From a virus, in IMG/VR virus record IMGVR_UViG_3300023179_000029, positions 1 through 64,000 of that record: a DNA stretch of 64,000 bases, one strand, 5' to 3'. The notes beneath the pieces were generated by a model, which was not told the origin of the DNA, made no database searches, and saw only the letters and a program-made list of their open reading frames with translations. Positions 6,796-23,700 of the stretch are shown here, one piece after another. The position numbers were made by a program, and so were the translations under genes. The first letter of the stretch is position 1; every line of letters begins with the position of its first letter.

Positions 6796-8847
6796 TTATC
6801 TGTTAGGAAGTCTACGAGAAACTGGTCTACCGCCAACAAGCCTTCTAGTTGGAGATGTCGGGTTTTGTTTACGTCCCATAGTTCCAGAAAAATATTGGTC
6901 GCCTTGACGCCTGCCATAGAAATGTGAAATTTCATTAGGCGTGGCGCTATCTCTACCTCCCATAGCGTATCCGCCGGGAGAACCCATACGCACACCTTCA
7001 TTTAAATCAACCCTTGTTTGCTTGGCCATAGAGTCTCCAATACAAGCCTCTACGACTTCCATCATAGCATCTGCGATATCTTTTGTCTGAATTGGACCAA
7101 CCTCCTGTTTTTCCACTCTTGGTACTTTAGCAGATTTAATTTCTTGAAGGAATTTAAGTTCAAGACTTGCATATTGACAATCGGCTTCATCAAATGGGGC
7201 ATGCACTTTATTTTGATTAATAGCAGTTTTAAAAATTTCTGCTCTATGCCAATTACCTAATGAAGTGGCCGTTTTCTCAAACACTCTAGTATTAATACCT
7301 TTATTACGCAAAGTTTTACGAAGATAGGAAATTGGCCAAGAACTCTGATGTTGATCCATTGTTAATTGTACCGGATGAAAAATTCCGCAAAGCATGATAA
7401 TTTCTTCAAGAATCGGTTCCCAATCAATTGTTCCGTCCTCAAAGTCTGCCGGATTCCACCTTTGGATGATGTCGAATATGACATGCTCTTCTTCTTTGTC
7501 ATCAATTTTAAACATTTCTGTATGACCAAGGGCAAACCCAAATCCTGCGGTAGTTGAAGATGGATCAAGATGAGCGTAATATTGATACATATATGTTCCG
7601 TTGGTACGATTAGTTTCAAGAGGTTCATAAACTAAACCTTCGTCGTTTTGACCAATTGGTACACCCTTAAACATACGATCAACTTTGGCGGCGTCAAGAT
7701 ACGAGTCAATAACTTCAGCGAAGTTTGCGCGTCTCTCGACTTTAAACTTCTCAGGATCTTGGCGTTCATCTTCTCGCATCTGAATAATGGCTTGGCGATC
7801 CTCATTTGTATAAAAGAATTCATCAGAGCCGGGCTTGCGAAGATTGGCATCCCAATCGGGAGATACTGTAACGCATTTTTTAGGACCAATATAAAGAGGG
7901 TCTTCCCACCAACCATCAAACAAAGCCCAAGAAGGCAACTTGATGCCTAAAGTCATTGGAGATACAGGGTTGCCGTTATCCATCTCCATGGCATTCTCAT
8001 AACGCTCATAAAACTTACCAACCTTTGAATAAGGCGACGAGTTAGCAAAAATCATGCCCGCCGTGCCAAACTGAGCGAGAGCAGGAATGGCGGCTGCGTA
8101 TACTTCGTTATCAGATTGATCAGAGTCGCCCTGCATGAAGTGGGCAAATTCGTCGAATGCAAAAACCATAGTGGCAGAACCACGAATGGTACGGGAGTTA
8201 GCTGGAAGGGCCTTACCACGGATTGTAGCGGTGTCTCGCATGACCTTACGACCCTGTCTCTTCCAACTAGCGATTTTACGAAGGTCTGCCTCGGTATAAA
8301 GACTGAATTCAAGCTCCTGCATTTTGTTAATATAACGCTGCATAGACATGCAAGAGTTGACCATGCCAGAAACGTCAGCATACTGCTGGTCTTTGGCCTG
8401 ATCCTGAGCGGCGGCGATTACAGAGAAATAAATTTCTTTGTCTGCGTCAATACCATAATAAGCATTTGGATCTTGAAGCTGGAGCGTGTCATAGATCTTT
8501 TTAGCAATAGAAAGTCCGGTGATAAAACCCTTTGAGCAACGGCGGCCTCCAACTAAAACGACTTCACGAAAATGTTCATACCCATTATCTTTACACCATT
8601 GAATACGTTCACGAATATTAGGAGAAATCTCGATGTTATCTCCGGGGCCGCCGCCTTCAATCCATGAATCAAGGATGCGCTCTTCTTGCTCTGTTAAATC
8701 CTCAAGAAAGAACAGTTTGAGAAGAAGGCGCTGTCTTGGGTATAAAATTCTTCCGCAGAATTCTTTGCTTTCGGCAAATTCTACAATGCCAACTTTTCTG
8801 CGATTGAAATTAGCTTCTAGCTGTCCTAAAAGGTCTAATTCGCTCAT
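6796..8847 (-). CDS. terL: Terminase large subunit
   Basis: LYPRQ adenine-binding motif, VGGRRCSKG Walker A-like, FAFDEFAHF Walker B, SSPY coupling motif, HLDPS RNase H-fold nuclease motif, KDIADA. Confidence 0.9.
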   Translation of the reverse strand: MSELDLLGQLEANFNRRKVGIVEFAESKEFCGRILYPRQRLLLKLFFLEDLTEQEERILDSWIEGGGPGDNIEISPNIRERIQWCKDNGYEHFREVVLVGGRRCSKGFITGLSIAKKIYDTLQLQDPNAYYGIDADKEIYFSVIAAAQDQAKDQQYADVSGMVNSCMSMQRYINKMQELEFSLYTEADLRKIASWKRQGRKVMRDTATIRGKALPANSRTIRGSATMVFAFDEFAHFMQGDSDQSDNEVYAAAIPALAQFGTAGMIFANSSPYSKVGKFYERYENAMEMDNGNPVSPMTLGIKLPSWALFDGWWEDPLYIGPKKCVTVSPDWDANLRKPGSDEFFYTNEDRQAIIQMREDERQDPEKFKVERRANFAEVIDSYLDAAKVDRMFKGVPIGQNDEGLVYEPLETNRTNGTYMYQYYAHLDPSSTTAGFGFALGHTEMFKIDDKEEEHVIFDIIQRWNPADFEDGTIDWEPILEEIIMLCGIFHPVQLTMDQHQSSWPISYLRKTLRNKGINTRVFEKTATSLGNWHRAEIFKTAINQNKVHAPFDEADCQYASLELKFLQEIKSAKVPRVEKQEVGPIQTKDIADAMMEVVEACIGDSMAKQTRVDLNEGVRMGSPGGYAMGGRDSATPNEISHFYGRRQGDQYFSGTMGRKQNPTSPTRRLVGGRPVSRRLPNR

Positions 8848-11205: not shown

Positions 11206-13071
11206 TTATCCTACTCTAATTGGAGTGATCGAAAGGTGTCGATCATAAACTGTCAGCGTTCCGCCGCCAGTGACCTTGTACTGGGCGTAGAGGCTGCCTG
11301 CGGTCAAAGTTGCATTGACAATTCTAGACCCGTTATATAGATGCGAGGCAACATCAGTTTGAATATCAAGTTCAAGGCCGGTTACGGGGGTCGCACCGGT
11401 GGTGGTGACGGTGCAAAGTCCCATATAATTATTTCTAACGCTGTTGGAATCGTTTGCTGCCGACATACCAAATTCAACCTTGTAAGTTCCCGCAAGAGGA
11501 ACTGTAACAAATGGACCACTGACACCCGTTGCCATAGTATAAGTATATGATGCAGACGCAGTAGTGCCATTTCCAACATTTTGAACGACAGAGCCGCCGC
11601 CAAGAAAATCCCATTTGGTTGTTGTTGAATTGTACCTCAGATGCCAAATCACGCCGGGAAAATTAGTTGCATCAACTATATAATAATACTCAAGTCCATC
11701 ATAAAGAGAAACGCCCGATGGAAGAGTTTGTCCGTAACCAATAGTCGTAGCAGCGGTCACTCGGCCTTTAGTGTCGACCGTAACTTGATCATAAGTACCG
11801 GCGCTAACGCCAGTAGTGCTGAGCTTATCCGAAGTTATCGCAGCATTGCGAATATGATCCGTTGTTACCGCACGATTTGAATCGGTAACAGCATCGCTTT
11901 TAAGAATTGTGCTATCGACTGTTCCAGAATCAGCAGATGTAATTACATTAGCATTAACAGTTACATTGGGAAATGTAATAGTTTTATTTGGAGCCGCTTG
12001 AATAGATGTAATGGTTACAGGATTAGAAGTACCATTAAGTATTGGCGCAGAAATTGTTGGAGATGTATCAAGAACTGCTTTACCAGTGCCGGTTTTATCA
12101 GTAATCGACGTACCATTAATTTTAAATATATTGCCGGTGCTAGCAGTGTCGTAAGTTTTGTTGGTAAAACTATCTTGAGTTGCTTTACCAACAAGCGTGT
12201 CATTTGCGGCAGGAAGTGTAATCGTATAATCTGTTGCGCTAGAATTAGCTGATGAAATAGTAGTTTTACCCGTGCTAGATCCGTTGATCTTAGGAGTTTT
12301 TAAAGAGGGGGAGTCGTTAAATACCAACAAACCACTGCCAGTTTCATCACTAAGAGAATCAATTAAAATTGCCGAAGTTCCTTGATTAGTTGGACTAAAG
12401 GTAGCAATAGGTCCTAAACCGAGATTAGTACGAGCAGTTGATGCAGTTGATGTAAGTTCGTTTAAATTATTACTTAATCTAAGTACTCCGGCGTCGTAAA
12501 CCCAAGATGATGCGCCATCAGTAATGAATCTTCTAAATCCATAAGCTGTACCAATTGTGACAGTGCTATTAACTACGCCATTAATATTTTGGCCAGTCGT
12601 TGGAATAATATCGATTTTTATTGTATCGTTATTTAAACCAGCGCCAGCTTGAATGATAACCTCTGTACCGGCAGCTAAACTGCTGGCCGATGGCAATGTT
12701 ACAGTTCGGCTAGCACTAATTGTTTGAGTTTGTCTAACAATCGTGCTTTTTGTGACAGGAGTATTAGTGGGACCGGCATTATTAAGATTGATATTGCTAG
12801 TTCCATCCCAATTAACATCAATGAAATCTGGTGGCCGTCCATTAGACAAACGGGTGTCACTAGCTAAAACAAATTTTGTGCTGTCTGTGTCTGATGATGT
12901 TGCAATCGCGGCCGGATCGATTGCGGAAAATTTAATTTTAATACCTTTAGTGCCACCAGTATGATCATGAACATCAATTGTAGTCCAGTTTGCTGCAAGT
13001 TGAGTATGATTATATGCATCAGATAACTGATCCCATACATTTAAACTCATATTTGTTGTAGTAGTGGCCAT
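11206..13071 (-). CDS. Tail fibre-like protein, paralog 1
   Basis: Same N-terminal module, GVSAGTYDQVTVDTKGRVTAA fibre repeat, WHLRY..WDFLGG domain, ends ITPIRVG. Confidence 0.7.
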   Translation of the reverse strand: MATTTTNMSLNVWDQLSDAYNHTQLAANWTTIDVHDHTGGTKGIKIKFSAIDPAAIATSSDTDSTKFVLASDTRLSNGRPPDFIDVNWDGTSNINLNNAGPTNTPVTKSTIVRQTQTISASRTVTLPSASSLAAGTEVIIQAGAGLNNDTIKIDIIPTTGQNINGVVNSTVTIGTAYGFRRFITDGASSWVYDAGVLRLSNNLNELTSTASTARTNLGLGPIATFSPTNQGTSAILIDSLSDETGSGLLVFNDSPSLKTPKINGSSTGKTTISSANSSATDYTITLPAANDTLVGKATQDSFTNKTYDTASTGNIFKINGTSITDKTGTGKAVLDTSPTISAPILNGTSNPVTITSIQAAPNKTITFPNVTVNANVITSADSGTVDSTILKSDAVTDSNRAVTTDHIRNAAITSDKLSTTGVSAGTYDQVTVDTKGRVTAATTIGYGQTLPSGVSLYDGLEYYYIVDATNFPGVIWHLRYNSTTTKWDFLGGGSVVQNVGNGTTASASYTYTMATGVSGPFVTVPLAGTYKVEFGMSAANDSNSVRNNYMGLCTVTTTGATPVTGLELDIQTDVASHLYNGSRIVNATLTAGSLYAQYKVTGGGTLTVYDRHLSITPIRVG

Positions 13072-13135
13072 AAAACTCTCTAATATTAAATACTTGATCG
13101 TGGCTCTGTTAAAGCCTTTTATCGATCATAGCAGA

Positions 13136-13405
13136 TTACAATAAAATTTTCAAGGCTAATTCGTGAGTGCAACCGCCATCAAGCATTTTCTTGACTTTAT
13201 GCCACGAAAGCGGAAAACTATATGACTTTCCATTAATGACATCGATATGGTTTGCGTTAGCAAGTTGCTCCGCCTGATCCTTAGAAAAACCAAGCGATAC
13301 AAAGGTTTCAACCCTATGATCTGATAGAACATCTTTGTCGGTTTCGGTGGTTGCCATATCTGACTCCCAAGGCCAAGGGTCGTATTTATATTGCCTCTTA
13401 TTCAT
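13136..13405 (-). CDS. Hypothetical protein (alternative start 13357)
   Basis: 89 aa ORF; GGAG RBS before both candidate starts. Confidence 0.55.
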   Translation of the reverse strand: MNKRQYKYDPWPWESDMATTETDKDVLSDHRVETFVSLGFSKDQAEQLANANHIDVINGKSYSFPLSWHKVKKMLDGGCTHELALKILL

Positions 13406-13431
13406 TAGTCTCCGTTTGTGAGTGTTTTAAG

Positions 13432-13502
13432 CTGGGGGACAGGGATTCGAACCCCAATTCCTCGGACCAGAACCGAGTGTCTTGCCGTTAGACGATCCCC
13501 CA
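13432..13502 (-). tRNA. tRNA-Gln(CTG)
   Basis: TGGGGGA acceptor, CTCGG-TTCTGGT-CCGAG anticodon arm, GGTTCGAATCC T-arm; no encoded CCA. Confidence 0.93.
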
Positions 13503-13509
13503 GTAAGAT

Positions 13510-13866
13510 TTACCTATCGAATTTTAACCAACGAATGATGCTTTTTTCAACAGGCTTAGCCAAATCTTCTACGGTCTTCTTGCCTTTTTCATCCATTCCA
13601 ACAGGAATTTTATGATCTTTAATGAATTTGACCGCCCAATCCTTGTTGTCTAATGTACTAGTGGATGTTTGAGATTTGCCAATATTGTATTGACGCAATA
13701 CATTTAATTCATTCTTTAGCCGATCTCGCTCGTCTTTAAGCTGATCAATCTCGTCTTCAAGAATGATAACTTGGAATATGTACCGATCCAGAGTTTCTTC
13801 AATTTCGTCAAAACGCTCACCAAGAGCCTTAGCTTCAGCCTTCCAATATTTCTTATTCTTCTTCAT
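13510..13866 (-). CDS. Hypothetical coiled-coil protein
   Basis: Likely start ATG 13866 (MKKNKKYWK) with AAGGA RBS; the ORF track extends it to 13935. Confidence 0.55.
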   Translation of the reverse strand: MKKNKKYWKAEAKALGERFDEIEETLDRYIFQVIILEDEIDQLKDERDRLKNELNVLRQYNIGKSQTSTSTLDNKDWAVKFIKDHKIPVGMDEKGKKTVEDLAKPVEKSIIRWLKFDR

Positions 13867-14152
13867 TATTTTCCTTTCTGCAACAACCGTCGCAGCCATG
13901 TATAGATTCAATACTAGCAGCCCTAGGGCCAACATTACGAGAAATCCAATTAATATGATCTAAATCGGGATGACCTATCCCATGCTTGCAAATTCTCTCC
14001 ATCATACCGCGATCATCGCGCCAATGAGTCGGCCAATCTTTCATATTATGATCCGAGGGGTTATGAATACAACAACCGTGCTTACGGCAATCTTCGGTTT
14101 CATTATGAACATTTAAGACTTTTTGTTTTGTTCCTGTAATATATTTATTCAT
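13853..14152 (-). CDS. His/Cys-rich small phage protein
   Basis: CCIHNPSDH..WP..WR.DRG.MERICKHGIGHPD motif, which I recall from actinophage hypothetical proteins. Confidence 0.7.
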   Translation of the reverse strand: MNKYITGTKQKVLNVHNETEDCRKHGCCIHNPSDHNMKDWPTHWRDDRGMMERICKHGIGHPDLDHINWISRNVGPRAASIESIHGCDGCCRKENNEEE

Positions 14153-14154
14153 AA

Positions 14155-14177
14155 TGCCCCCGGCAGGACTCGAACCT
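14155..14177 (-). pseudogene. 3' fragment of disrupted tRNA-Lys(TTT)
   Basis: AGGTTCGAGTCCTGC-CGGGGGC-A: T-loop and acceptor strand complementary to GCCCTTG at 14766-14772. Confidence 0.85.
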
Positions 14178-14184
14178 AGTTTAA

Positions 14185-14258
14185 TGGGGGCGGTAGGGAT
14201 CGAACCTACAAATCGTCTGATTAAAAGTCAGGTGCTGTACCAATTTAGCTACACCCCC
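14185..14258 (-). tRNA. tRNA-Lys(TTT), intact
   Basis: GGGGGTG/CGCCCCC acceptor, CCTGA-CTTTTAA-TCAGA anticodon arm, GTAGGTTCGATCCCTAC T-arm. Confidence 0.93.
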
Positions 14259-14694
14259 GAAATTGAAGCGTATACTTATAATAGTTATAAGTTTTTGCTG
14301 TGCGGCGTTTATGACAATTTGCGCATACTACTTCGCATTTGTCAATTTCTTCTAAAATACGTTCAAATGTATATCCTTGCATTATCATCTCTGATACATT
14401 TTTGAATTTGTCTCTTTGATGATCAAACTCAAGTACTATTATATCAGATTCATTGCAGTCAACGCAAGGGTGATTTTTTAAATACTCAACAACCTTGCTT
14501 TGACTATTGCCAATGTTTGCATTTTTGCGTTTTAAAATATCTTGTTTATGTTTCTCTCTATTTTCTGCGTAATATTGTCTAGACCTAGCCCGATTGCATT
14601 CACGACATACATTTTGTTTTCCATCGGGGCGACTAGTTTTTTTATTATACTCAGAAAGCGGTTTTTCTTGTTTGCAAAGTGTGCATTGTTTCAT
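14245..14694 (-). CDS. HNH endonuclease with N-terminal Zn finger
   Basis: KQCTLCKQEK..CREC finger and HPCVDC..VLEFDH..KCEVVCANCH nuclease; likely start ATG 14694; stop codon lies inside tRNA-Lys. Confidence 0.9.
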   Translation of the reverse strand: MKQCTLCKQEKPLSEYNKKTSRPDGKQNVCRECNRARSRQYYAENREKHKQDILKRKNANIGNSQSKVVEYLKNHPCVDCNESDIIVLEFDHQRDKFKNVSEMIMQGYTFERILEEIDKCEVVCANCHKRRTAKTYNYYKYTLQFRGCS

Positions 14695-14726
14695 AACTTT
14701 TAACTTGCGCAAATAGTTAAAAGTTA
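14694..14726. repeat. Perfect 12-bp inverted repeat over the HNH start
   Basis: TAACTTTTAACT (14694-14705) and AGTTAAAAGTTA (14715-14726), 9-nt spacer. Confidence 0.85.
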
Positions 14727-14733
14727 GTAATAA

Positions 14734-14772
14734 ATTAAAAGTCCGCTACTCTACCAATTGAGTTACAAGGGC
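14734..14772 (-). pseudogene. 5' fragment of disrupted tRNA-Lys(TTT)
   Basis: GCCCTTG TA ACTC AATTGGTA GAGT A GCGGA CTTTTAA T: acceptor, perfect D-arm and anticodon loop, then an abrupt stop. Confidence 0.88.
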
Positions 14773-14790
14773 GAGCAGAGATATGATAGC

Positions 14791-14819
14791 AAAGCCCGGA
14801 CCATGTTTCAAGTCCGGGC
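14791..14819 (-). terminator. Intrinsic terminator after the holin, abutting an extended -10 (TGcTATCAT)
   Basis: GCCCGGAC/GTCCGGGC stem followed by TTT. Confidence 0.65.
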
Positions 14820-14844
14820 CAAGCCAAGATAGGATCACCTCAAG

Positions 14845-15051
14845 TTAGTTCTTTGGGGGAAGTGCTGAACGAATACCAACTGCTGATGCAAACGCAATAA
14901 TGGTAGTGAGAATCTTCTGTGCCGATGAAGTGGCCGAACCGCCAAGAACACCAGACTGAATGATGAATGTAGCGGCGCCAACAAAAATACCATAAGCAAA
15001 TGATACTTGAGCCTTTGTAAGATGACGGAGCCAATTAATAAACTTTGTCAT
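14845..15051 (-). CDS. Holin (putative)
   Basis: 68 aa with two hydrophobic segments and a basic tail; strong AAAGGAGG RBS; near the endolysin. Confidence 0.65.
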   Translation of the reverse strand: MTKFINWLRHLTKAQVSFAYGIFVGAATFIIQSGVLGGSATSSAQKILTTIIAFASAVGIRSALPPKN

Positions 15052-15085
15052 ATTACCTCCTTTCAGTTATTACTTGTCGCAATCA

Positions 15086-15158
15086 TGCCATGGACAGGGT
15101 TCGAACCTGTATAAAACCGATTATGAGTCGGGCGCCTAAACCATTCAGCCACCATGGC
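15086..15158 (-). tRNA. tRNA with CAT anticodon (elongator Met or lysidine-Ile2)
   Basis: GCCATGG/CCATGGC acceptor, CCCGA-CTCATAA-TCGGT anticodon arm. Confidence 0.88.
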
Positions 15159-15161
15159 CTA

Positions 15162-15234
15162 TAGTCCCGCCGGGATTTGAACCCAGAATACGACTTTATA
15201 AGAATCGCGTGTTTACCACTTACACCACGGGACA
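15162..15234 (-). tRNA. tRNA-Ile(TAT)
   Basis: CGATT-CTTATAA-AGTCG anticodon arm, GTGT/ACAC D-stem, CTGGGTTCAAATCCCGG T-arm; U1.U72 mismatch, A73. Confidence 0.82.
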
Positions 15235-15308
15235 AGCCGAAGGTCGGATTCGAACCGACGACATCTGCTTTACAAGAGCAGCGCTCTGGCCAACTGAGCT
15301 ACTTCGGC
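15235..15308 (-). tRNA. tRNA-Thr(TGT)
   Basis: GCCGAAG/CTTCGGC acceptor, CTGCT-CTTGTAA-AGCAG; upstream TGgTATAAT. Confidence 0.95.
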
Positions 15309-15317
15309 GTAAGCCTA

Positions 15318-16706
15318 TTATACCAGATAATTCATGTCACAATTGCCGATGCCCTTAGCCGACTTAGGGCTAAGAACACCTGTTGTGCCATCTGTGTATT
15401 GGCAAGCCCAAAGATGGGGTTTAGCAATAGCCGGAACAGTAGTTTCAGGTTTAGCAGTATAAGCAGCATGCCAATAACGAAGGGGCTTACCTTTATGATC
15501 TTTGGGCCACTTAGTTACGGTACCGGGGAGGTACCAGCCGCCACTATAAATAACGCGAACAGTATAACCTAAACGCCATGCTTCAGTAATAAAGTCTGCA
15601 ATCCACTTATCGCCGTTTTTATTTTGAAACTTGGGATCCTCCCAATCAAGAACAAGTCGATCATCAGGATTAAGCTTGCCAGCGGCCTTAATAGCATCAG
15701 TGAAATTCTTTGCCTCTTGCTGAGGGGTATTATTACTTGGACGGGCAAAATGATAAATAAAACGAGTAAGCCCAATGCGACCAGCTTCGCGAAAACGAGC
15801 TTGAAATGCAGAATCCTTAAATGTGCGACCTTCGCTAGCTTTTAATACAATAAGTGGATAACCGCCAGATTTATATTGTGAAAGGTTTACTGTCCTCTGA
15901 CCTTCGTAACAGTCCGCAAAATACTTAGCATTAGGATTCTTAGGCTTGGTAGGAGGCTTAGGTGTTGGCTTAACAGGGGGCTTGACTGGAGCAGGAGTTG
16001 GCTTAGAAGGCTTTACCGGAGGCTTGGGATTAACGGGGGGCTTAGGAGTAGGTTTAGACTTAACAGGGCCGTTAAGAGCCTTCCAAGTGCCGGGACCGAC
16101 AATTCCATCGGCAGTGAGTTTATAATCCTTCTGGAATTTCTTTACTTGACGAGTAGTTAGGGCGCCAAAACCATTATTGTTAATTGGGTATACGGCGGGC
16201 CAATAACCATGCTTTTTAAGGAGCTTCTTAAGAGTTACGCAATAACCATTTTTATCACCCTGCTGAATAGTAGGTTCGACCTTGTACTTATCAACGGCTG
16301 AATAATGGCCTTCCTTCCACTTGAAATGCCAAGGCTCAGAAGGAGCATCACTCCATGACTTTGACCAACCAAAATCCTTGCCGTAATTAGCAATAAGCCT
16401 TTGGGTCTGATAAGGAACGTCAAGAGCAAGACCCAATCCGTGATTAGAAGTGCCGGGACGCGCTGCAAGGTTGCCGCCGTTTTGGTAACGCTCCCAAGCG
16501 GCCCATTGGCTCCAACGATTAGCTCGCCAATCGCCGGGCTTACCGAGCGGACGATAAGAATCATTAACCTCTACGGTTTGACCGTGCTTTTCTTTTACAT
16601 AACGAGCAAAAGCATTCCAAGCATCAGCGGCGTCATGACGAAGGCGGCCACCGCCAGCAATATTAGTTAATTCGCTGTTTTTAAGTTGTCCGTTAGCACT
16701 CATCAC
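15318..16706 (-). CDS. Endolysin: M15/VanY-like peptidase, PG-binding domain, Pro/Lys linker, GH25 muramidase
   Basis: SYR..PGTSNHGLGLALD..EPWH; VKKFQ..L.ADGIVGPGTW; LKASEG..YHFARP..VLDWE..QYT..CDMN. Confidence 0.92.
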   Translation of the reverse strand: MMSANGQLKNSELTNIAGGGRLRHDAADAWNAFARYVKEKHGQTVEVNDSYRPLGKPGDWRANRWSQWAAWERYQNGGNLAARPGTSNHGLGLALDVPYQTQRLIANYGKDFGWSKSWSDAPSEPWHFKWKEGHYSAVDKYKVEPTIQQGDKNGYCVTLKKLLKKHGYWPAVYPINNNGFGALTTRQVKKFQKDYKLTADGIVGPGTWKALNGPVKSKPTPKPPVNPKPPVKPSKPTPAPVKPPVKPTPKPPTKPKNPNAKYFADCYEGQRTVNLSQYKSGGYPLIVLKASEGRTFKDSAFQARFREAGRIGLTRFIYHFARPSNNTPQQEAKNFTDAIKAAGKLNPDDRLVLDWEDPKFQNKNGDKWIADFITEAWRLGYTVRVIYSGGWYLPGTVTKWPKDHKGKPLRYWHAAYTAKPETTVPAIAKPHLWACQYTDGTTGVLSPKSAKGIGNCDMNYLV

Positions 16707-16738
16707 ATATTATATTCTTGATATACAATTTTATTGAG

Positions 16739-16812
16739 TAGGGGCGGTGGGATTCGAACCCACACTGTAGGGATTTTAAGTCCCCTTTCTCTGCCAGTTG
16801 GAATACGCCCCC
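16739..16812 (-). tRNA. tRNA-Leu(TAA) with short variable loop
   Basis: GGGGA-CTTAAAA-TCCCT anticodon arm, variable loop ACAGT, 74 nt. Confidence 0.9.
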
Positions 16813-16824
16813 AAGATCATTATA

Positions 16825-17295
16825 TCAGATGTTCATGCGCCTAGCATACTCTGACCATTCTCCATCAGACCTCTGCAAAAGAGATGTAATTGTTTCTGAA
16901 TTTACAGTCCAAGATCCATCATTATTCATTTCGCAATAAATGACCCTATCGACAATGGACAAAAGTTGTCTTGCACAAGACAAACATGGACGAGAATTTT
17001 TTGCAAAATTGCCAGCCCTTGTCAAAGTTACGATACATACTGTGTCAGCATCAAAATCTCTTGGCAAATTTGTAATAGCATCATGTTCTGCATGAACAGA
17101 AGCAATGGCCATACCGCCATTATGGTTATGCGAACAACCTTTAGCAAAAATTTCTGGCCTTTTACCATTTTTAAAAATTACTGCCCCAGTACGATGACGC
17201 TTGTGAGTAGAACGCCTCGCCTGTTTGCAAGTTTCTTCCCAAACGGTAAGAGGAGCAACTTCTGTAAGAATGCTTGTAGATGGAATGTTCTTCAT
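16825..17295 (-). CDS. Zn-dependent cytidine/dCMP deaminase-fold protein
   Basis: HAE..PCxxC (SVHAEHDAI, SRPCLSC); likely leaderless start ATG 17295, 6 nt after TGcTATACT. Confidence 0.85.
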   Translation of the reverse strand: MKNIPSTSILTEVAPLTVWEETCKQARRSTHKRHRTGAVIFKNGKRPEIFAKGCSHNHNGGMAIASVHAEHDAITNLPRDFDADTVCIVTLTRAGNFAKNSRPCLSCARQLLSIVDRVIYCEMNNDGSWTVNSETITSLLQRSDGEWSEYARRMNI

Positions 17296-17316
17296 AACAC
17301 TAGTATAGCATAAGAC

Positions 17317-17341
17317 AAAGACCGGCACAAGGCCGGTCTTT
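17317..17341 (-). terminator. Hairpin terminator after the tRNA cluster
   Basis: AAAGACCGGC-cttgt-GCCGGTCTTT. Confidence 0.65.
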
Positions 17342-17388
17342 GCTGACATGTATAGTTGAAATAATTCAACTTTTGTTCCCTTACGGGA

Positions 17389-17461
17389 TAGCGGAGGCGG
17401 GAATCGAACCTCGCGACCTCTAGGATATGAACCTAGCGAGCTACCACTGCTCCACTCCGCG
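17389..17461 (-). tRNA. Initiator-type tRNA-fMet(CAT)
   Basis: CGCGGAG TGGAGCAG start, C1.U72 mismatch, CTAGG-TTCATAT-CCTAG anticodon arm; upstream TGgTATAAT. Confidence 0.85.
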
Positions 17462-17501
17462 ATGTATACACATTATACCACACTCTAATGTGATTTTCAA
17501 G

Positions 17502-17573
17502 TAGCGGGTAGGAGAATCGAACTCCTATCGCGGGTGTGAAAAACCCGAATCCTGACCGTTAGACGAACCCGCC
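17502..17573 (-). tRNA. tRNA-Glu(TTC)
   Basis: CGGGT-TTTTCAC-ACCCG anticodon arm, GGAGTTCGATTCTCC T-arm; upstream TGaTATAAT. Confidence 0.92.
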
Positions 17574-17598
17574 AAGTTTTGTCATTATATCATATTTA

Positions 17599-17670
17599 CT
17601 GGTCCGGTAGGATTCGAACCTACAACCGTCGCCTTAACAGGGCGCTGCACTGCCATTGTGCTACGGACCA
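17599..17670 (-). tRNA. tRNA-Asn(GTT)
   Basis: TGGTCCG/CGGACCA acceptor, CGCC-CTGTTAA-GGCG anticodon arm; 5' end overlaps the HNH stop. Confidence 0.92.
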
Positions 17671-18020
17671 ATGGTGGTAATACCATTTTCAACTTCTCTA
17701 TGGCAATTGGCACATAATAGCACACATTTATTAGCCTCTTCAAGAAGTTTATCAAATGATTTACTTAATCCTTTTTGACCTAAACCAAAATTTTTGTCAT
17801 TAGGATCAATATGATGAAACTCAAGGGCCGCTGAACATTTGTCGTATTTACAAATTTGACATTTGCCCCCAAAATGAGAAACTAATTTCAATTTGTTTTT
17901 ACGACGCTGCTCGGCAACTCTATCTTGTCTACATTGTTTGCATCTGTAATAACCACGACCCTCCAGAACAAATTCTGTTAGGCCGTGGTGTTTACATTCT
18001 TTTGTAATATATTTTTTCAC
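17661..18020 (-). CDS. HNH endonuclease
   Basis: CKHHG..RCKQC finger; GGKCQICKY..ALEFHHIDP..KCVLLCANCHRE. Confidence 0.9.
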   Translation of the reverse strand: MKKYITKECKHHGLTEFVLEGRGYYRCKQCRQDRVAEQRRKNKLKLVSHFGGKCQICKYDKCSAALEFHHIDPNDKNFGLGQKGLSKSFDKLLEEANKCVLLCANCHREVENGITTIGP

Positions 18021-18065
18021 ATATATTATATGTCGGTATATTACAAAATGTTATACCGAAGAAGG

Positions 18066-18188
18066 TGAGTCGCCAATGCTTTTCCGCTTGCACATAGTAG
18101 ATCATCGCCTATTGATTAATTCTACTTTTTCATCAATAGGTTAGGCGGTTTCATTATTATTTATACCGATAATAATGGGCGACTCAAC
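18066..18188 (-). ncRNA. Candidate structured ncRNA with pseudoknot
   Basis: Three perfect 9-bp helices, a 4-bp helix and a 6-bp loop pseudoknot; TGtTATAAT promoter at 18193-18201. Confidence 0.6.
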
Positions 18189-18209
18189 ACTCATTATAAC
18201 AGATTTTTA

Positions 18210-18282
18210 TGGGCGGTGCAAGGCTCGAACTTGCGACCTACTCGGTGTAAACGAGTTGCTCTCCCAACTGAGCTAACCGCCC
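18210..18282 (-). tRNA. tRNA-Val(TAC)
   Basis: GGGCGGT/ACCGCCC acceptor, ACTCG-TTTACAC-CGAGT. Confidence 0.95.
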
Positions 18283-18299
18283 TTATTTGTTTACTACAA

Positions 18300-18373
18300 T
18301 CGGGATGGTAGGATTTGAACCTACGACCCTTCGCTCCCAAAGCGAATGCGCTACCAGACTGCGCCACATCCCG
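18300..18373 (-). tRNA. tRNA-Pro(TGG)
   Basis: CGGGATG/CATCCCG acceptor, TTCGC-TTTGGGA-GCGAA. Confidence 0.95.
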
Positions 18374-18377
18374 TGAT

Positions 18378-21300
18378 TTATATTCTACCTTGATAATAAA
18401 GTGCTTTATCTTGATAAGTTTGTGCTGCAAATTTAGGTTGTATTGAAATAACTATTTTAGCATTAGTTAAATTAAGATTATTAATTTCATTATTTAAATT
18501 TGAAACTGAGTAAGCATTAATAATAAATGTGTTTGATAATGGTAAGCTTTGTATTTGAAAAGACCCATTGTATTTATTTGCATTTGTACCAGTAATACCA
18601 ATAATAGTTACTGAATCAAATTGTCCACTTTTACCTCTAATATTATGATCATTTGCAGTCGTAAATGTCAATTGTTTATAATTAGAACTTTGTTTAATAT
18701 CAATTATACTAACAAATTCTTCTAATTGCAACTTAGAATATAAAATTCTTTGACCGACTCCGTTACTGGTATCTGACCCTGATGATAATGAAAGACTCAA
18801 ATTTTCAAATGTAGCAGGATTATTTTTATCATTTAAAACAAGATAAGGAAAAGTATAATTCATTACTTTAGTAATAGTTCCCGTATTTTCATTGACCACG
18901 CCAGTCGGCGGATTTAAACCAAATTCAGAAACAGGAATAGTAAAAGTTTTAGTTTTAGAGTTTCCTGTTACAGTTATCGGTAAATCAGTTGATTTAGCTT
19001 GACCACTTTGAGTAGAGTTTGCAAGGGTAACAGTTTTTTCAATTGTAAATTGAGAATCGGTTCTTGTAGCAACGGTTCCAGTGATATTATATCCAGTTGG
19101 TAACATTCCTGTAATTGTTACTGTTTGACCAACAACAAATTTATTAGATGCAAAATAAGTTAATTTAGTTCCATTACTTGAAGCATTAGTAACACTTGTT
19201 GTGTAAAGCGTGTTATATTTTGTATCTCCAGTTATTCCAGAAATAATGACTCTTTGCCCGGTAATTAATTCGTGAGCGGATCTTGTCGTATATGTTACAG
19301 TATCGCCGCTGACAGATGCAGATGCAATAAGAATATTTTCCGTGGTAAAATACGGCATTTTAAATTTAACAGTTTTTCTGTCATCACTAATTGCATCATT
19401 TTCTGAACTAATTTCTATACCATTTGGAAAATTTTTTAAAATAGACTTAGAAGATCCATATAATCTGTAAATTTTAGTTCCCGTGGCCCACAAACTTGGA
19501 ACTGGAGTGGTAAATGTGGCAAATGTATCGCCTTTATTAACTGTAAAAGTTCCAGATTTTAAAGCCCCGTTTTTAGAACGATAAAGGCCTCTTTCGTTGT
19601 TAGTTCCGGCATCAGGATTAGAACTTGCGCTGCGAATAACGTAAGCAGTTTCATCACTAACCCAGTTAAAATACATTACATTTTCAATTTGCCAATTTGG
19701 CAATTCAAGTAAATTTTTAAAACTTGTGATGGAACTATCCCAAGACAACAATCTGTCTATGTATGTGTTTTGCTCTGTTTCAGATACAGCACCATCGCCA
19801 TAACCTATTTGATCAGTGGACCACCCATACTCGCTAAGAATTAGATTTGGACAAGTCAAATTATTAACTGTTGGGATGCCATAGCCGTTTTTATCTTGTT
19901 GGAAAATTGTTTGGTAATTCGGATCGTCTGTAAATTGTCTTATCAATACGGTTGATGCTTTTGCTCCATTATAATCACTTGGATATATATTTACACCAAA
20001 TTTATCATATGCATATTTTCCATTTTTAATTGCAAATATTTTTGGATAAGTCGTCTTTGGAATAGTTACCGCATTTGAAACAGCGTTTGCGTTTGGATCA
20101 ACGTCATGCATTTCTTTTTTGATAATTTTAATAAAATCGATAAAACTATATGCAAATTCATATGCATAATCTTTTACAGAAACAGATTTATTAAAAATAC
20201 CATCTGTAGTTTTTAATTTAATTTGTTTAGGATGAAAAGGCCAATTGGCTCCACGAACAAGTAATTCTTGATCCATTGTGTGCGTTGGACCGTCGTTAAT
20301 TCGAAATTTAAAATCTGCGGGATAATTTCTTTTTCCATAAGCAGCAGAATCGCACTCGTTCCAAATTTGATAATTGATCATTTTTGGAAAAATTAATTTA
20401 ACGGGTACACCCGCTGGCATTGTTTTATTTAAAGGTTTATCAATTGTAATTTGGTTTCCATTAATTGAACAAATTTTTGCATTTGGAGGAATATATGAAT
20501 CGTTACCATTTTGCGCAGTCGATGGGACAGATCCGTATGCATCGCTTTCTATTGTCATCCCGACAACAATATTTGATGTTGTCGGATAGCTACTATCAAT
20601 AATTAAATTAATAGTTTGATTATAACTTGTTGAAATAACGCTAGACGAAGCGGAAGTAACCGTAGTAACGTCGTTATTTAATCCGCTCCAAAAAGAACCA
20701 TTAGTGCCGAACCTTATTAACATTTTATTCATAAAATTAGCAAAATCATTATAATTTGAAGGAATTGACCCTCCTCTTCTTTGCAAATTAGTTGCAAATA
20801 TCACCGCATCATTAACTGAATCAAAAGTAAAAACATCACCATTAGATATACTTTTACTTTTACCATTAATAACATTGTTATTTTCATAATTAGCAATAGT
20901 ACCAATAACATAACCATCTACAACGCCAGTTATATTTTGATTTAAATTAATTTTCCAAGTATCGTTGACGCGAGTTAATGATGTAATTCGGGTATCATCT
21001 TGAATATTGGTACCGGTTATAACCATATTTGGAAGTAACAAACACCCTCTTTTTAAATCATCAATTATAATAAATGAATCACCAGAATTACCTGTTGCAT
21101 AAATTTTGACGCCTTTATTTTGTAATTGAGTTTTTGTTTCTGGGTCATTAAAAGAAAACAAATTGGTATTGTCAATTTTGTAATCCCAATCCATCGCCCA
21201 ATTAGGCGGAGATCCTAATCTTGGCATCACTTGAATTCCTACTTCGCTTGCTAATTTTAAATAATTTTCTAAAGGAAAAATTGAATTATTCCAATTAATT

Positions 21301-21761
21301 GAATGATTTAAAATTCCACCTACAACAGTTGGAGCATTAGGTTCAAAATCTTTCCAAAAAACAGATGTTCTAACTGACTCTACACCACTGGCCGCCATAT
21401 TGTGCAAAATGTATTCAATATTTTTTTGATTATTAAAAAAATAAATATTTAAATTTGTAATATTTTTATTTACATTTGCATTTAAAGTAATTTGATTACC
21501 AGTTTTACCAATAACTCTAGTCGGCTCTCCATTACTATTTAAAGCAGGAATGTTTACACCAGTTACAAACTGGCCAATTTCTATACCCGTTGAACTTGCA
21601 ACCGTAACAATATTTTGTCCGGCGGTGGCCGATTGACAAATAGTTTTAATTTTTGTAGATTCAACAGAACTACCATTGTACATGGTAAAACCGTTTGTCA
21701 AAAATGTAGTTGGAAGTAAATTACTTCCAATAAAAGTCACTGGGTATTTTCTTGTAGCCAT
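18378..21761 (-). CDS. Large GH-A clan (GH39/GH5-like) glycoside hydrolase interrupted by beta-rich modules
   Basis: GVESVRTSVFWKDFEP, LGSPPNWA, YQIWNE (acid/base), LILSEYGWS (nucleophile), YFNW; AT-rich. Confidence 0.7.
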   Translation of the reverse strand: MATRKYPVTFIGSNLLPTTFLTNGFTMYNGSSVESTKIKTICQSATAGQNIVTVASSTGIEIGQFVTGVNIPALNSNGEPTRVIGKTGNQITLNANVNKNITNLNIYFFNNQKNIEYILHNMAASGVESVRTSVFWKDFEPNAPTVVGGILNHSINWNNSIFPLENYLKLASEVGIQVMPRLGSPPNWAMDWDYKIDNTNLFSFNDPETKTQLQNKGVKIYATGNSGDSFIIIDDLKRGCLLLPNMVITGTNIQDDTRITSLTRVNDTWKINLNQNITGVVDGYVIGTIANYENNNVINGKSKSISNGDVFTFDSVNDAVIFATNLQRRGGSIPSNYNDFANFMNKMLIRFGTNGSFWSGLNNDVTTVTSASSSVISTSYNQTINLIIDSSYPTTSNIVVGMTIESDAYGSVPSTAQNGNDSYIPPNAKICSINGNQITIDKPLNKTMPAGVPVKLIFPKMINYQIWNECDSAAYGKRNYPADFKFRINDGPTHTMDQELLVRGANWPFHPKQIKLKTTDGIFNKSVSVKDYAYEFAYSFIDFIKIIKKEMHDVDPNANAVSNAVTIPKTTYPKIFAIKNGKYAYDKFGVNIYPSDYNGAKASTVLIRQFTDDPNYQTIFQQDKNGYGIPTVNNLTCPNLILSEYGWSTDQIGYGDGAVSETEQNTYIDRLLSWDSSITSFKNLLELPNWQIENVMYFNWVSDETAYVIRSASSNPDAGTNNERGLYRSKNGALKSGTFTVNKGDTFATFTTPVPSLWATGTKIYRLYGSSKSILKNFPNGIEISSENDAISDDRKTVKFKMPYFTTENILIASASVSGDTVTYTTRSAHELITGQRVIISGITGDTKYNTLYTTSVTNASSNGTKLTYFASNKFVVGQTVTITGMLPTGYNITGTVATRTDSQFTIEKTVTLANSTQSGQAKSTDLPITVTGNSKTKTFTIPVSEFGLNPPTGVVNENTGTITKVMNYTFPYLVLNDKNNPATFENLSLSLSSGSDTSNGVGQRILYSKLQLEEFVSIIDIKQSSNYKQLTFTTANDHNIRGKSGQFDSVTIIGITGTNANKYNGSFQIQSLPLSNTFIINAYSVSNLNNEINNLNLTNAKIVISIQPKFAAQTYQDKALYYQGRI

Positions 21762-21815
21762 TAAAAATTTGTTAATATTGGTTTATCAACTATTATTATC
21801 AAGTAATTGTGCAAA

Positions 21816-21897
21816 TGGTGGGGGCAGGATTCGAACCTGCGAACTCTGAGAGAGAGGTTTTACAGACCCCGTGCGTTGACCGCTTGCATACCCCACC
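21816..21897 (-). tRNA. tRNA-Tyr(GTA)
   Basis: GGTGGGG/CCCCACC acceptor, GGGGT-CTGTAAA-ACCTC, long variable arm. Confidence 0.93.
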
Positions 21898-21944
21898 GTA
21901 ATACTTTATAAATTATCAATGTACTAGTAATAGTATATCATAAC

Positions 21945-21970
21945 AAAAGAGGCTCCACAAGGGAGCCTCT
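21945..21970 (-). terminator. Intrinsic terminator after nrdJ
   Basis: AGAGGCTCC..GGAGCCTCT followed by TTTGTT. Confidence 0.75.
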
Positions 21971-22002
21971 CCGTACTGCTAAACTATATGCTCAGACAAG
22001 TC

Positions 22003-23700
22003 TTAGGTCCCACACAGGCCTCCGACACAACGCTCTTCGGTCTCCTCAAATACGACGCCAACCTTGTCTTTAGCTTCCTCATAAGTAGAAATCGTAAGGG
22101 GCTGTCCGCCTCTTGACCCATCGGGGTAGCATGTGATGCCTCTGAGATGTGGTAGATAGCCGTACAGAAGATCTGCGAAATCTGCAACCTCTGTAGGATC
22201 CGTCATTGGATACGGGGTGTTAATTGTTGATGAAATACCATGGTCGACAAACTGCTGAACCCATGCTTGCATTGAAATACGACGCTCAACATCATAAGAA
22301 AGAGTATAAGCATCTTCAATCGCCTCTGGGTCAACGCCTTCATCAATTAAACGCTTAGCAGTAGGATCAATTACATACTGGTAACGAATGATATCCTCAC
22401 CATTGGGCTGAGCCTCCTTATAACGGCGCTTGAAAGCAACGCAGAAAATAGGCTCGATCCCAGTGGTGGTTTCGGCAATAATTCCAATTGTGCCGGTAGG
22501 AGCAATAGCGCGAGTTTTAATTGGAGCATTAAGTCCGTGCTTCTCAGCCCACTCTGCGGCAAACTCTCCGGAATCAGCGTATTCGCCAAGCCATTCGCCA
22601 AGCTCAAGATCGGGACCGTATTTCTTGCCCCTTTTAAGTAGCCATTCATGGATGCCCATGACACCAAGGCCAAGACGACGATTCTGGGCGCGAACTTCCT
22701 TCACCTTGTCGTAAGGAAGATCTGAATACACGGTTCCGGCAAGTAGGAATAGTGTTCCGTACTTAACGACCTCGCGCATTTCTACGATATCCTCAATCCT
22801 TGAAAGATTAATTGATCCAAGATTGCAAATATCCGAATCGTCATGTGATGTAACTTCGGTACATGCGTTACGAAGAGTTTCACCGGTATTCTCACCAATG
22901 TCTACGCTAAATCCGGGTTCAGCGGTCTTAACCATGTACTGAACGCCAAGATGGTAAATGTGATGGGCAATTTTGTGCTTAGGATGATCCTTGTTTTCAT
23001 AAGCAACAAAGAATTCATCATCAAGTAGAATGGAAATGTTTGTGAATTCCATATCTGCTGGAAAATTAAAATCTTTAGCCTTAATTTCACGAACTTCATC
23101 ACGCCAATCCTTGATGCGAATGAATTCCTCGCAATCTGGATGTGACCAATTGAGACCGGCCCAGATAGCAGAGCGACGAGCGCCACCCTGCATAACCCCG
23201 CGACCAATTTCATTAACCATCTTCATTAGAGGAATAGGTCCGGATGCGACTCCGCCAGTCCTTTTAATAGGGGTATTTGATGGGCGAATATCGGAATAAT
23301 CAATACCAATGCCAGCACCTGTCTGTAGAGCCATAGCTGACTTGGCAAGAAGATCCGCCCAACCTTCCCTAGAATCCTCTGCCCTAAGGAGAAGGCAATT
23401 CTGGGTCTGATGTAGATCCCTTCCGGAAGCGTAAAGATAACGACCACCGGGAATAAACTTCCTATCCCGAACGTAACCAAAAAGTTTATTGAACTCGACA
23501 CTATCCTCATCATAGCCAAGAGCACCAAGGACATTACTTACTACACGACGAGCAGTATCCTCCCAATTTTCAATTACATTACCTTCTTCATCCTTCCAAG
23601 CATATTTTTGTTCGTAAATGGTCTTAGCGAACTCACTCATCTCTAAAGATGAATCATGACTTACTTCATTAGTTGTATTTAGTTCTGTTACTTGATTCAT
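22003..23700 (-). CDS. nrdJ: Ribonucleotide reductase, class II (B12-dependent) type
   Basis: PGGRYL, NC, GAGIGIDYS, NACTE, CNLGSINL, RRLGLGVMG, IAPTGT..TTGIEP, C-terminal CxxxxC; no beta-subunit gene nearby. Confidence 0.88.
   Translation of the reverse strand: MNQVTELNTTNEVSHDSSLEMSEFAKTIYEQKYAWKDEEGNVIENWEDTARRVVSNVLGALGYDEDSVEFNKLFGYVRDRKFIPGGRYLYASGRDLHQTQNCLLLRAEDSREGWADLLAKSAMALQTGAGIGIDYSDIRPSNTPIKRTGGVASGPIPLMKMVNEIGRGVMQGGARRSAIWAGLNWSHPDCEEFIRIKDWRDEVREIKAKDFNFPADMEFTNISILLDDEFFVAYENKDHPKHKIAHHIYHLGVQYMVKTAEPGFSVDIGENTGETLRNACTEVTSHDDSDICNLGSINLSRIEDIVEMREVVKYGTLFLLAGTVYSDLPYDKVKEVRAQNRRLGLGVMGIHEWLLKRGKKYGPDLELGEWLGEYADSGEFAAEWAEKHGLNAPIKTRAIAPTGTIGIIAETTTGIEPIFCVAFKRRYKEAQPNGEDIIRYQYVIDPTAKRLIDEGVDPEAIEDAYTLSYDVERRISMQAWVQQFVDHGISSTINTPYPMTDPTEVADFADLLYGYLPHLRGITCYPDGSRGGQPLTISTYEEAKDKVGVVFEETEERCVGGLCGT

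Follow-up and report, generated by a model that had tools for sequence, protein, structure and literature searches.

The first 64 kb of the 127-kb uncultured virus record IMGVR_UViG_3300023179_000029, termed the window and belonging to a lake phage with a GC content of 40%, contain a gene for an HNH endonuclease, termed HNH2, with a stop codon located inside the tRNA-Asn(GUU) gene directly downstream. The arrangement is best explained (with a probability of roughly 0.7) by a free-standing homing endonuclease gene of a lineage specialised on tRNA-Asn(GUU), which would have inserted at the 5' end of the tRNA, next to a structured RNA, with its reading frame being completed by the tRNA bases U8-A9-G10. 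HNH2 is located within, and co-oriented with, an array of 12 tRNAs identified using ARAGORN between 13431 and 21897, all placed on the minus strand with protein genes interspersed; every window feature given below is on the same strand. A megablast search of 13000-22000 against cultured phages returned only tRNA-Pro matches, and no close cultured relative of the phage was found.

The insertion is defined by comparison with three IMG/VR relatives found using the endolysin as bait, L123, L124 and L125 (72, 71 and 59% identity, respectively), which share the gene order of the window; the dCMP-deaminase-like protein used as bait retrieved nothing from IMG/VR. With every window open reading frame (ORF) of the 12-23-kb region as a tblastn query the order is conserved, and neither HNH2 nor a second HNH gene of the window, termed HNH1, has a match in the three relatives. 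A tRNA-Asn gene without an HNH gene is present at the matching place in L124 and L125, and L123 has no tRNA-Asn. The alignment shows the structured RNA in L124 and L125 separated from tRNA-Asn by a spacer of 2-4 nucleotides (nt), compared with ~395 nt between the two in the window. Because the structured RNA lies next to tRNA-Asn in the HNH-less relatives, HNH2 is interpreted as a ~395-nt insertion at the 5' boundary of tRNA-Asn, with the junction pinned to within about 5 nt by presence and absence across the syntenic relatives, and a gain in the window lineage is the parsimonious reading. The inserted DNA is composed of a 46-nt hairpin leader and a frame of 119 codons with no stop codon of its own, so that translation would continue across the first 10 nt of tRNA-Asn and end at U8-A9-G10.

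The leader (18021-18066) is part of the insertion and is missing from the alignable sequence of L123, L124 and L125. It is predicted to fold into an imperfect hairpin at 18033-18059 (UCGGUAUA-A-CAU...GUA-AUAUACCGA) followed by CAUAUAAUAUAU ahead of the GUG start, and no Shine-Dalgarno sequence is present in it. The left edge of the insertion is formed by the structured RNA of ~120 nt (18067-18186), which is conserved in alignments of the four phages; 11 of 31 predicted pairs still pair after changes on both sides, and the fold z-score for 18015-18200 is -3.9. These compensatory changes argue that the predicted RNA structure is real. No Rfam family matches the structured RNA. Its copies in the relatives (L123, 5165-5290; L124, 3590-3713; L125, 5298-5419) are placed directly between tRNA-Leu and tRNA-Asn, or in the tRNA-Met region in L123. 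Just past tRNA-Val an extended -10-like motif, TGTTATAAT, is read at 18193-18201 and is a candidate promoter for a unit of structured RNA, HNH2 and tRNA-Asn; the motif has no -35 match and was not listed by a consensus promoter scan, and the aligned place in L125 is occupied by CTGCTACAAT.

Contigs of four DNA runs mostly match just the tRNA genes of other organisms. One contig (X2, 209 nt) is identical to 17836-18044, and another (X9, 119 nt) carries a near-identical tRNA-Asn. A third (X4) joins 17482 to 18067 without tRNA-Glu, tRNA-Asn or HNH2 and is L123-like, the letters between these positions being not known. None of the contigs of the four runs shows the HNH-less junction of a closer relative in readable form.

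The HNH2 ORF (17661-18020) encodes 119 amino acids followed by a TAG stop, starts with GTG at 18018-18020 and has the C terminus ENGITTIGP*. The tRNA-Asn(GUU) gene (17599-17670) matches Rfam RF00005 with 66.5 bits and has a full cloverleaf with discriminator G and no encoded CCA. ARAGORN places its limits at 17598-17671 compared with 17599-17670 for Rfam, and with the Rfam limits the fold has a 7-bp acceptor stem, U8, discriminator G and an unpaired G27.A43. Direct reading of the sequence with these limits gives an overlap of 10 nt (17661-17670) in which nucleotide 1 of the tRNA completes an Ile codon as its third base, nucleotides 2-7 encode Gly-Pro and U8-A9-G10 form the TAG stop. The initial annotation of this locus had described the last 10 nt of HNH2 as the first 10 nt of tRNA-Asn(GUU) and the ORF as ending in ITTIGP*, and both are exactly as described. 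An identical overlap phase is found in the HNH locus L003 and in the relatives from Solirubrobacterales with ..CCG GGG TAG ends. The U8-A9-G10 triplet is regarded here as near-universal among tRNAs; as measured, 61% of the array tRNAs (317 of 519 distinct genes) have a stop triplet at nucleotides 8-10. Reading of the TAG as a recoded codon is ruled out, with no suppressor tRNA among the 12 and the relatives sharing the place of the stop, and a longer HNH2 ORF is ruled out by an open frame of just 129 codons.

By its conserved residues, HNH2 is an intact nuclease of the HNH (His-Me finger) superfamily and has a Cys4 zinc site. The best match is PHROG 2255, annotated HNH endonuclease (E 2.9e-30), and eight more PHROGs are matched with six of these annotated as HNH endonuclease. 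In the family alignment Cys-54, Cys-57, His-70, Cys-103, Cys-106 and His-107 are invariant and Asn-105 is near-invariant, and the Cys4 zinc site and the catalytic His and Asn are kept in both HNH2 and HNH1. The N terminus of HNH2 can be aligned with the relatives L003 and L004 from residues 1-3. A profile search of the PDB with HNH2 gives weak matches to solved HNH domains and to nothing else, the Pfam family PF13391 (HNH_2) scores 17 bits compared with a cut-off of 21 bits, and a search of NCBIfam gives no match. HNH1 and HNH2 had been assigned to different families, and this assignment is not retained as HNH1 also has PHROG 2255 as its best match (E 1e-32); the two proteins are 27% identical and are placed in separate clades. 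No Rfam group I or group II intron family is found around HNH2 at E ≤ 5, tRNA-Asn being uninterrupted, and the Rfam search at the same threshold over 13000-22500 gives no intron, riboswitch or partial tRNA.

The frequency with which HNH genes end inside tRNAs was determined from 120 IMG/VR loci (two protein scans and one profile scan) plus the window, which contain 147 HNH segments forming 119 clusters at 90% identity. The stop lies inside the next same-strand tRNA in 32 clusters, 0-20 nt before it in 15, at 21-200 nt in 18 and farther away in 14, with the remainder having no downstream tRNA in the locus (33) or being cut by a contig end (7). Expressed for the 112 assessable non-redundant HNH relatives, 79 have a same-strand downstream tRNA, within 200 nt in 65 of these. 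The comparison set is formed by ORFs of at least 100 amino acids that stop no more than 200 nt ahead of a tRNA on the same strand, with redundancy removed at 90%. In the test as set beforehand, overlap occurs in 32 of 60 HNH-family ORFs compared with 8 of 73 others (Fisher p 1.3e-7), as the initial annotation had anticipated, and the excess of HNH stops inside tRNAs is a family-wide trait above chance. One of the 32 overlap clusters depends on a doubtful 90-nt "tRNA-Phe" from ARAGORN, with the anticodon at position 31 and an overlap of 43-52 nt in L018-type loci. Half of the HNH overlaps (16/32) have a length of 9-11 nt, corresponding to the triplet at nucleotides 8-10. Classification of the eight non-HNH overlapping ORFs left out those in L030, L055 and L081 and assigns the other five as three further homing or HNH endonucleases, one 2-oxoglutarate (2OG)-oxygenase-like protein and one unknown.

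The association with tRNA-Asn is a property of the clade. HNH2 has 37 non-redundant relatives with at least 45% identity over at least 100 amino acids, and one being cut by a contig end leaves 36 assessable. The gene is located no more than 60 nt upstream of tRNA-Asn in 28 of the 36, with 9 overlapping the tRNA and 19 separated from it by a gap; two others run into tRNA-Ser or tRNA-Gly and six have no nearby tRNA. The proposal that the overlap locks nuclease and tRNA together thus holds in so far as the clade keeps tRNA-Asn, but the overlap itself is not obligatory, given the 15 of 119 clusters with stops 0-20 nt ahead of the tRNA. In a FastTree phylogeny of the HNH proteins (193 rows, 132 columns) the tRNA labels change 52 times compared with a shuffled mean of 84, and Asn against other tRNAs changes 7 times compared with a shuffled mean of 29.8 and a minimum of 24, in a tree with many unresolved forks, with no starred clade that includes HNH2 and with kinship inflating the clustering of labels.

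The nearest relatives of HNH2 include genes on chromosomes of Solirubrobacterales with 65-74% GC. The gene is placed just ahead of the single tRNA-Asn in 11 of 11 of these loci, and four of the 11 end ..CCG GGG TAG on nucleotides 8-10 of the tRNA, the phase found in the window, so that the clade keeps both its tRNA partner and its reading phase from a phage of 40% GC to these bacteria. Occurrence in this order is patchy: an HNH2-like gene is present in 54 of 151 sampled Solirubrobacterales genomes (loci L214-L223, L232 and L234-L263), often separated from tRNA-Asn by a relic of the tRNA 5' part, and a 75-nt tRNA-Asn DNA query matches 148 of the same 151 genomes at E ≤ 0.001, the weaker matches possibly being other tRNAs. 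Of 39 pairs in which a gap separates the ORF from its tRNA, 8 have a copy of nucleotides 1-10 of the tRNA (at most one mismatch) within the gap, compared with 1 of 604 control tRNAs, although the pairs with such a relic represent only ~2-3 independent events. These copies, like the splitting of a resident tRNA by HNH1 described below, are read as footprints of mobility. The relics span the first 10-30 nt of the tRNA, and the tRNA-derived stop is therefore ancestral to the HNH2 clade, with losses and regains.

Several further features of the relatives are recorded as observations. By eye, a D-arm variant ..GGCAGATGCG.. is present in 7 of 13 HNH-containing loci of Solirubrobacterales and in 1 of 17 HNH-free loci, the single HNH-free locus having a tRNA relic upstream. 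Relatives from Peribacteria and Peregrinibacteria of the candidate phyla radiation (CPR; L225-L231) have no adjoining tRNA and are followed by a conserved ..GGATAACGGTGAAAGCTAA..AAGCCAATACCGTGGGAA.. sequence, which resembles a structured RNA or the surroundings of an intron. In Lak-like contigs of 250-550 kb (L006-L009, L057 and L170) an in-frame stop under translation table 11 breaks the HNH match, which a recoded stop codon would fit.

Taken as a homing endonuclease gene, HNH2 would operate as follows. The enzyme would cut tRNA-Asn loci lacking the HNH gene during co-infection, and recombinational repair would copy HNH2 into the cut locus with the tRNA providing the downstream homology. RNase P would strip everything 5' of nucleotide 1, leaving the tRNA unharmed, and the insertion site would be tolerated because RNase P trims any leader. 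HNH2 would be transcribed within the tRNA precursor, possibly from the TGTTATAAT motif, and maturation of the tRNA 5' end would part the message from its stop codon, probably keeping the output of nuclease low.

Several points weigh against this interpretation. Loss of HNH2 in the three syntenic relatives, in place of a gain in the window, is an alternative, although a less parsimonious one. The nearest relatives of HNH2 are just 59-61% identical and so no recent transfer is documented; the closest matches reach at most 61% in the metagenome scan, 56% in the genome scan and 60% in the 151 Solirubrobacterales genomes. The clustering of tRNA-Asn with the clade derives partly from vertical descent within Solirubrobacterales. 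The acceptor and T arms are the same in HNH-containing and HNH-free tRNA-Asn alleles of Solirubrobacterales, which does not account for how the carrier would escape cutting itself. Finally, 33 of 73 non-HNH ORFs also stop 0-20 nt from a tRNA, and because other array ORFs stop this close, the tightness at HNH2 is partly general compaction.

A different outcome of HNH gain is visible at HNH1 (14245-14712), a protein of 155 amino acids in a tRNA-Lys-linked clade with a TAA stop formed by nucleotides 12-14 of tRNA-Lys, giving the 14-nt overlap that had been noted. The complete tRNA-Lys(UUU) (14185-14258), which arrived with HNH1, is flanked by two pieces of an older resident gene, a 5' half broken in the anticodon loop (14735-14772; nhmmer 14734-14774) and a 3' part with the T arm and acceptor strand (14155-14180; nhmmer 14155-14178). 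The gain of HNH1, with a carried replacement tRNA-Lys and the resident tRNA-Lys split, is certain from this comparison because both broken pieces match the intact, HNH-free tRNA-Lys of L125 (7888-7962) and the complete copy is only 69% identical to that gene. L035, to which HNH1 is most similar by identity (48% over 108 columns), likewise has a tRNA-Lys(TTT) downstream, at +13. A 12-bp inverted repeat (TAACTTTTAACT / AGTTAAAAGTTA) at 14694-14741 ends at the HNH1 ATG, and each of its arms repeats the tRNA-Lys anticodon-loop sequence. The repeat could occlude the HNH1 start, as in homing nuclease genes of T4. HNH1 and HNH2 thus share a PHROG, a phage and a stop inside the downstream tRNA, whereas the arrival of HNH1 introduced a new tRNA and split the old one, and HNH2 appears as a clean insertion ahead of a tRNA in the ancestral position.

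The HNH1 locus suggests that HNH2 and its tRNA-Asn could likewise travel as a locked pair, in which case the window tRNA-Asn would be an imported copy immune to cleavage that replaced the resident gene. This is a possibility that we consider doubtful. In its favour, HNH1 did exactly this in the same phage, tRNA-Asn flanks the HNH gene on both sides in L003, L010/L167 and L172, and all five anticodon-stem pairs of the window tRNA-Asn differ from those of L125 with the T arm and variable loop being identical. Among 263 loci, the unusual stem GCGCC/GGCGA with G27.A43 is otherwise confined to the HNH-linked tRNA-Asn of L135 and L136/L214, but the shared stem could be chance, and IMG/VR contains no second match to the exact 24-mer of the anticodon arm. 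Against the locked pair, tRNA-Asn stands at the syntenic place without HNH in L124 and L125, and the tRNA is therefore independent of the nuclease, so that the mutual locking proposed in the initial annotation fails on the tRNA side. The window tRNA-Asn is 81% identical to that of L125, a value within the 70-99% spanned by the remaining class-I tRNAs shared with this relative, and the tRNA-Asn genes beside the closest HNH relatives are very unlike it. Flanking broken halves as found at HNH1 are also missing; the initial annotation had seen no remnant of an older tRNA-Asn, and none is detected at 17574-17597 or 18021-18209 using an nhmmer tRNA profile (E ≤ 10) or Rfam (E ≤ 5), the same nhmmer profile recovering both old tRNA-Lys pieces beside HNH1.

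Two features common to tRNA-Asn and tRNA-Lys had been pointed out previously, and both are present in the sequence. A 27:43 mismatch followed by CG occurs in each (G.A in tRNA-Asn and C.A in tRNA-Lys), and a 27:43 G.A mismatch is also found in the HNH-free tRNA-Lys of L125. The T-arm strings are near-identical as quoted; the shared T arm is rejected as a signature of a cassette as the same arm occurs in HNH-free tRNAs of the relatives, with GTAGGTTCGA.TCCTAC in the tRNA-Asn and tRNA-Lys of L125 and GTAGGTTCAAATCCTAC in the tRNA-Pro of both L125 and the window.

That the stop-inside-tRNA layout is selected as a throttle, with RNase P cleavage producing a non-stop message, rescue by transfer-messenger RNA (tmRNA) leading to tagging and degradation of the product, and nuclease being made only from transcripts translated before processing, is in our view unlikely. 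The layout is enriched in the HNH2 family and in other homing-nuclease families and is found in hegC and hegD of phage T5; the base at -1 is U and tRNA-Asn is, by its fold, a good RNase P substrate. A similar control is proposed for the T4 homing nuclease SegB and for T5 enzymes in PMC2330249, which also treats hairpins as a restraint on homing nucleases, and both HNH starts of the window are placed at hairpins. However, many relatives have their own stop just ahead of the tRNA or a duplicated 5' piece of the tRNA by which a stop ahead of the RNase P cleavage position is regained, and the layout is easily gained and lost, as expected if it is nearly neutral. Untagged release (rescue of the ArfA/ArfB type) would moreover cost the product just three residues.

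A benefit to the phage, with the nuclease excluding the tRNA regions of competitors or driving duplication and turnover of tRNAs against host defences that cut tRNAs, is improbable. SegB excludes the tRNA region of T2L in crosses (PMC2330249), amplification of anti-defence tRNA loci by SegB is reported in a 2026 paper (PMC13096335), and genes of the family are commonly surrounded by tRNA debris and by duplicated tRNAs; yet the window has no sign of amplification, and the same clade occurs on bacterial chromosomes next to their only tRNA-Asn, a setting in which such a benefit is not apparent. Least probable of all is an overlap arising purely as a by-product of tight packing and of the free stop triplet in 61% of array tRNAs, with no link to mobility, as would be suggested by window non-HNH ORFs with stops 4, 7, 9 and 12 nt ahead of tRNAs and by the 33 of 73 closely placed stops given above, since overlap is about five times commoner in the HNH family, HNH2 is an insertion missing from the syntenic relatives, and the same tRNA partner and phase are kept from the 40% GC phage to bacteria of 65-74% GC.

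Returning to HNH2 as a tRNA-Asn-specialised homing gene, a more general proposal may be tentatively drawn, although we hold it to be rather speculative. The 5' leader of a tRNA may constitute a third silent niche for homing nucleases, besides introns and inteins, in which RNase P would both excise the element and limit it to about one round of translation per transcript with the rest passing to tmRNA rescue, and a single lineage may have stayed with tRNA-Asn all the way from the chromosomes of actinobacteria to phages of fresh water.

Other features of the array and its surroundings are as follows. A tRNA with the anticodon UAA (Leu) at 16738-16812 is just 75 nt long with no long variable arm, compared with 85 nt for the syntenic tRNA-Leu(UAA) of L125, and short "tRNA-Leu" genes also occur in several related arrays, e.g. 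L011 and L028. A ribonucleotide-reductase-like protein encoded at 22006-22935 is 56-60% identical to counterparts in Streptomyces phages and in an acidobacterial (Tunturiibacter) phage. Both this similarity and the occurrence of HNH2 relatives in actinobacteria hint at an actinobacterial host.

HNH2 provides a base-precise natural example of how a selfish nuclease gene can be accommodated without cost in a gene-dense tRNA array. It can be compared with an allele that has no HNH gene, and also with the less tidy insertion of HNH1 in the same genome. Counting across the family puts a measured tendency in place of anecdote from the T4 and T5 annotations. The tRNA-Asn clade, in phages and about one-third of the sampled Solirubrobacterales, offers a tractable system for enzyme recognition in tRNA genes and for the older idea of a throttle through tRNA processing. 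Annotators should note that where an ORF overlaps a tRNA by 10-25 nt in a phage array, the overlap is usually genuine.

Homologues of HNH2 in cultured phages, annotated as HNH endonucleases, differ in their placement. Cronobacter phage CR3 gp262 is a true homologue (47.5% identity over 117 amino acids) in a tRNA array beside tRNA-Asn, but it is located 17 nt downstream of tRNA-Asn and its stop is 23 nt before tRNA-Glu with no overlap. The HNH homologue of Acinetobacter phage Aci05 has its next tRNA 640 nt away, and that of Shigella phage Henu11 (gp64) stops 7 nt inside a tRNA. In the T5 RefSeq annotation the stops of hegC and hegD lie 14 nt inside tRNA-Ser2 and 23 nt inside tRNA-Gln2, respectively. 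As in HNH2, these are HNH genes in a tRNA array that end inside the next tRNA, with stable RNAs between the T5 tRNAs. They differ in belonging to PHROG 59 with a NUMOD-type domain and in their tRNA partners, and neither has significant similarity to HNH2 in BLASTP (E 0.05-0.7). The HNH enzymes of the T5 tRNA region are the F-Tfl enzymes of Akulenko et al. 2004, as cited in PMC2330249. Also in T5 (L130), T5.069 (7007-7525), a 172-amino acid protein of unknown function in PHROG 5032, has an annotated end 24 nt inside tRNA-Asn(GUU).

A literature search for papers treating nuclease ORF ends inside tRNAs retrieved only the SegB paper (PMC2330249), and subscription papers on T5 and supplements may discuss them. 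According to that paper SegB, a precedent for the homing proposed here, recognises a T-loop motif of tRNAs and homes in the T4 tRNA cluster, its preferred T2L site is in tRNA-Asn, its start region is occluded by a hairpin, and maturation of tRNA-Arg was proposed in 2008 to cut after the final sense codon, ahead of the stop, and so limit expression. The activity and homing of SegB are demonstrated at the bench, whereas those of HNH2 are predicted from sequence. SegB resembles HNH2 in its location, inside a tRNA cluster of the same orientation and immediately 5' of a tRNA, and in being missing from related phages, and differs in having a GIY-YIG rather than an HNH fold and in being annotated as abutting and not overlapping the tRNA, the T4 RefSeq record placing the segB stop 5 nt before tRNA-Arg. 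The T4 cluster, as at the HNH2 locus, has small stable RNAs beside its tRNAs, and the structured RNA upstream of HNH2 is likened to these (rnaC and rnaD) and to those of the T5 tRNA cluster. The stop-inside-tRNA layout is thus already visible in phages T4 and T5, and HNH2 is a well-documented new example of it and not a new type of system.

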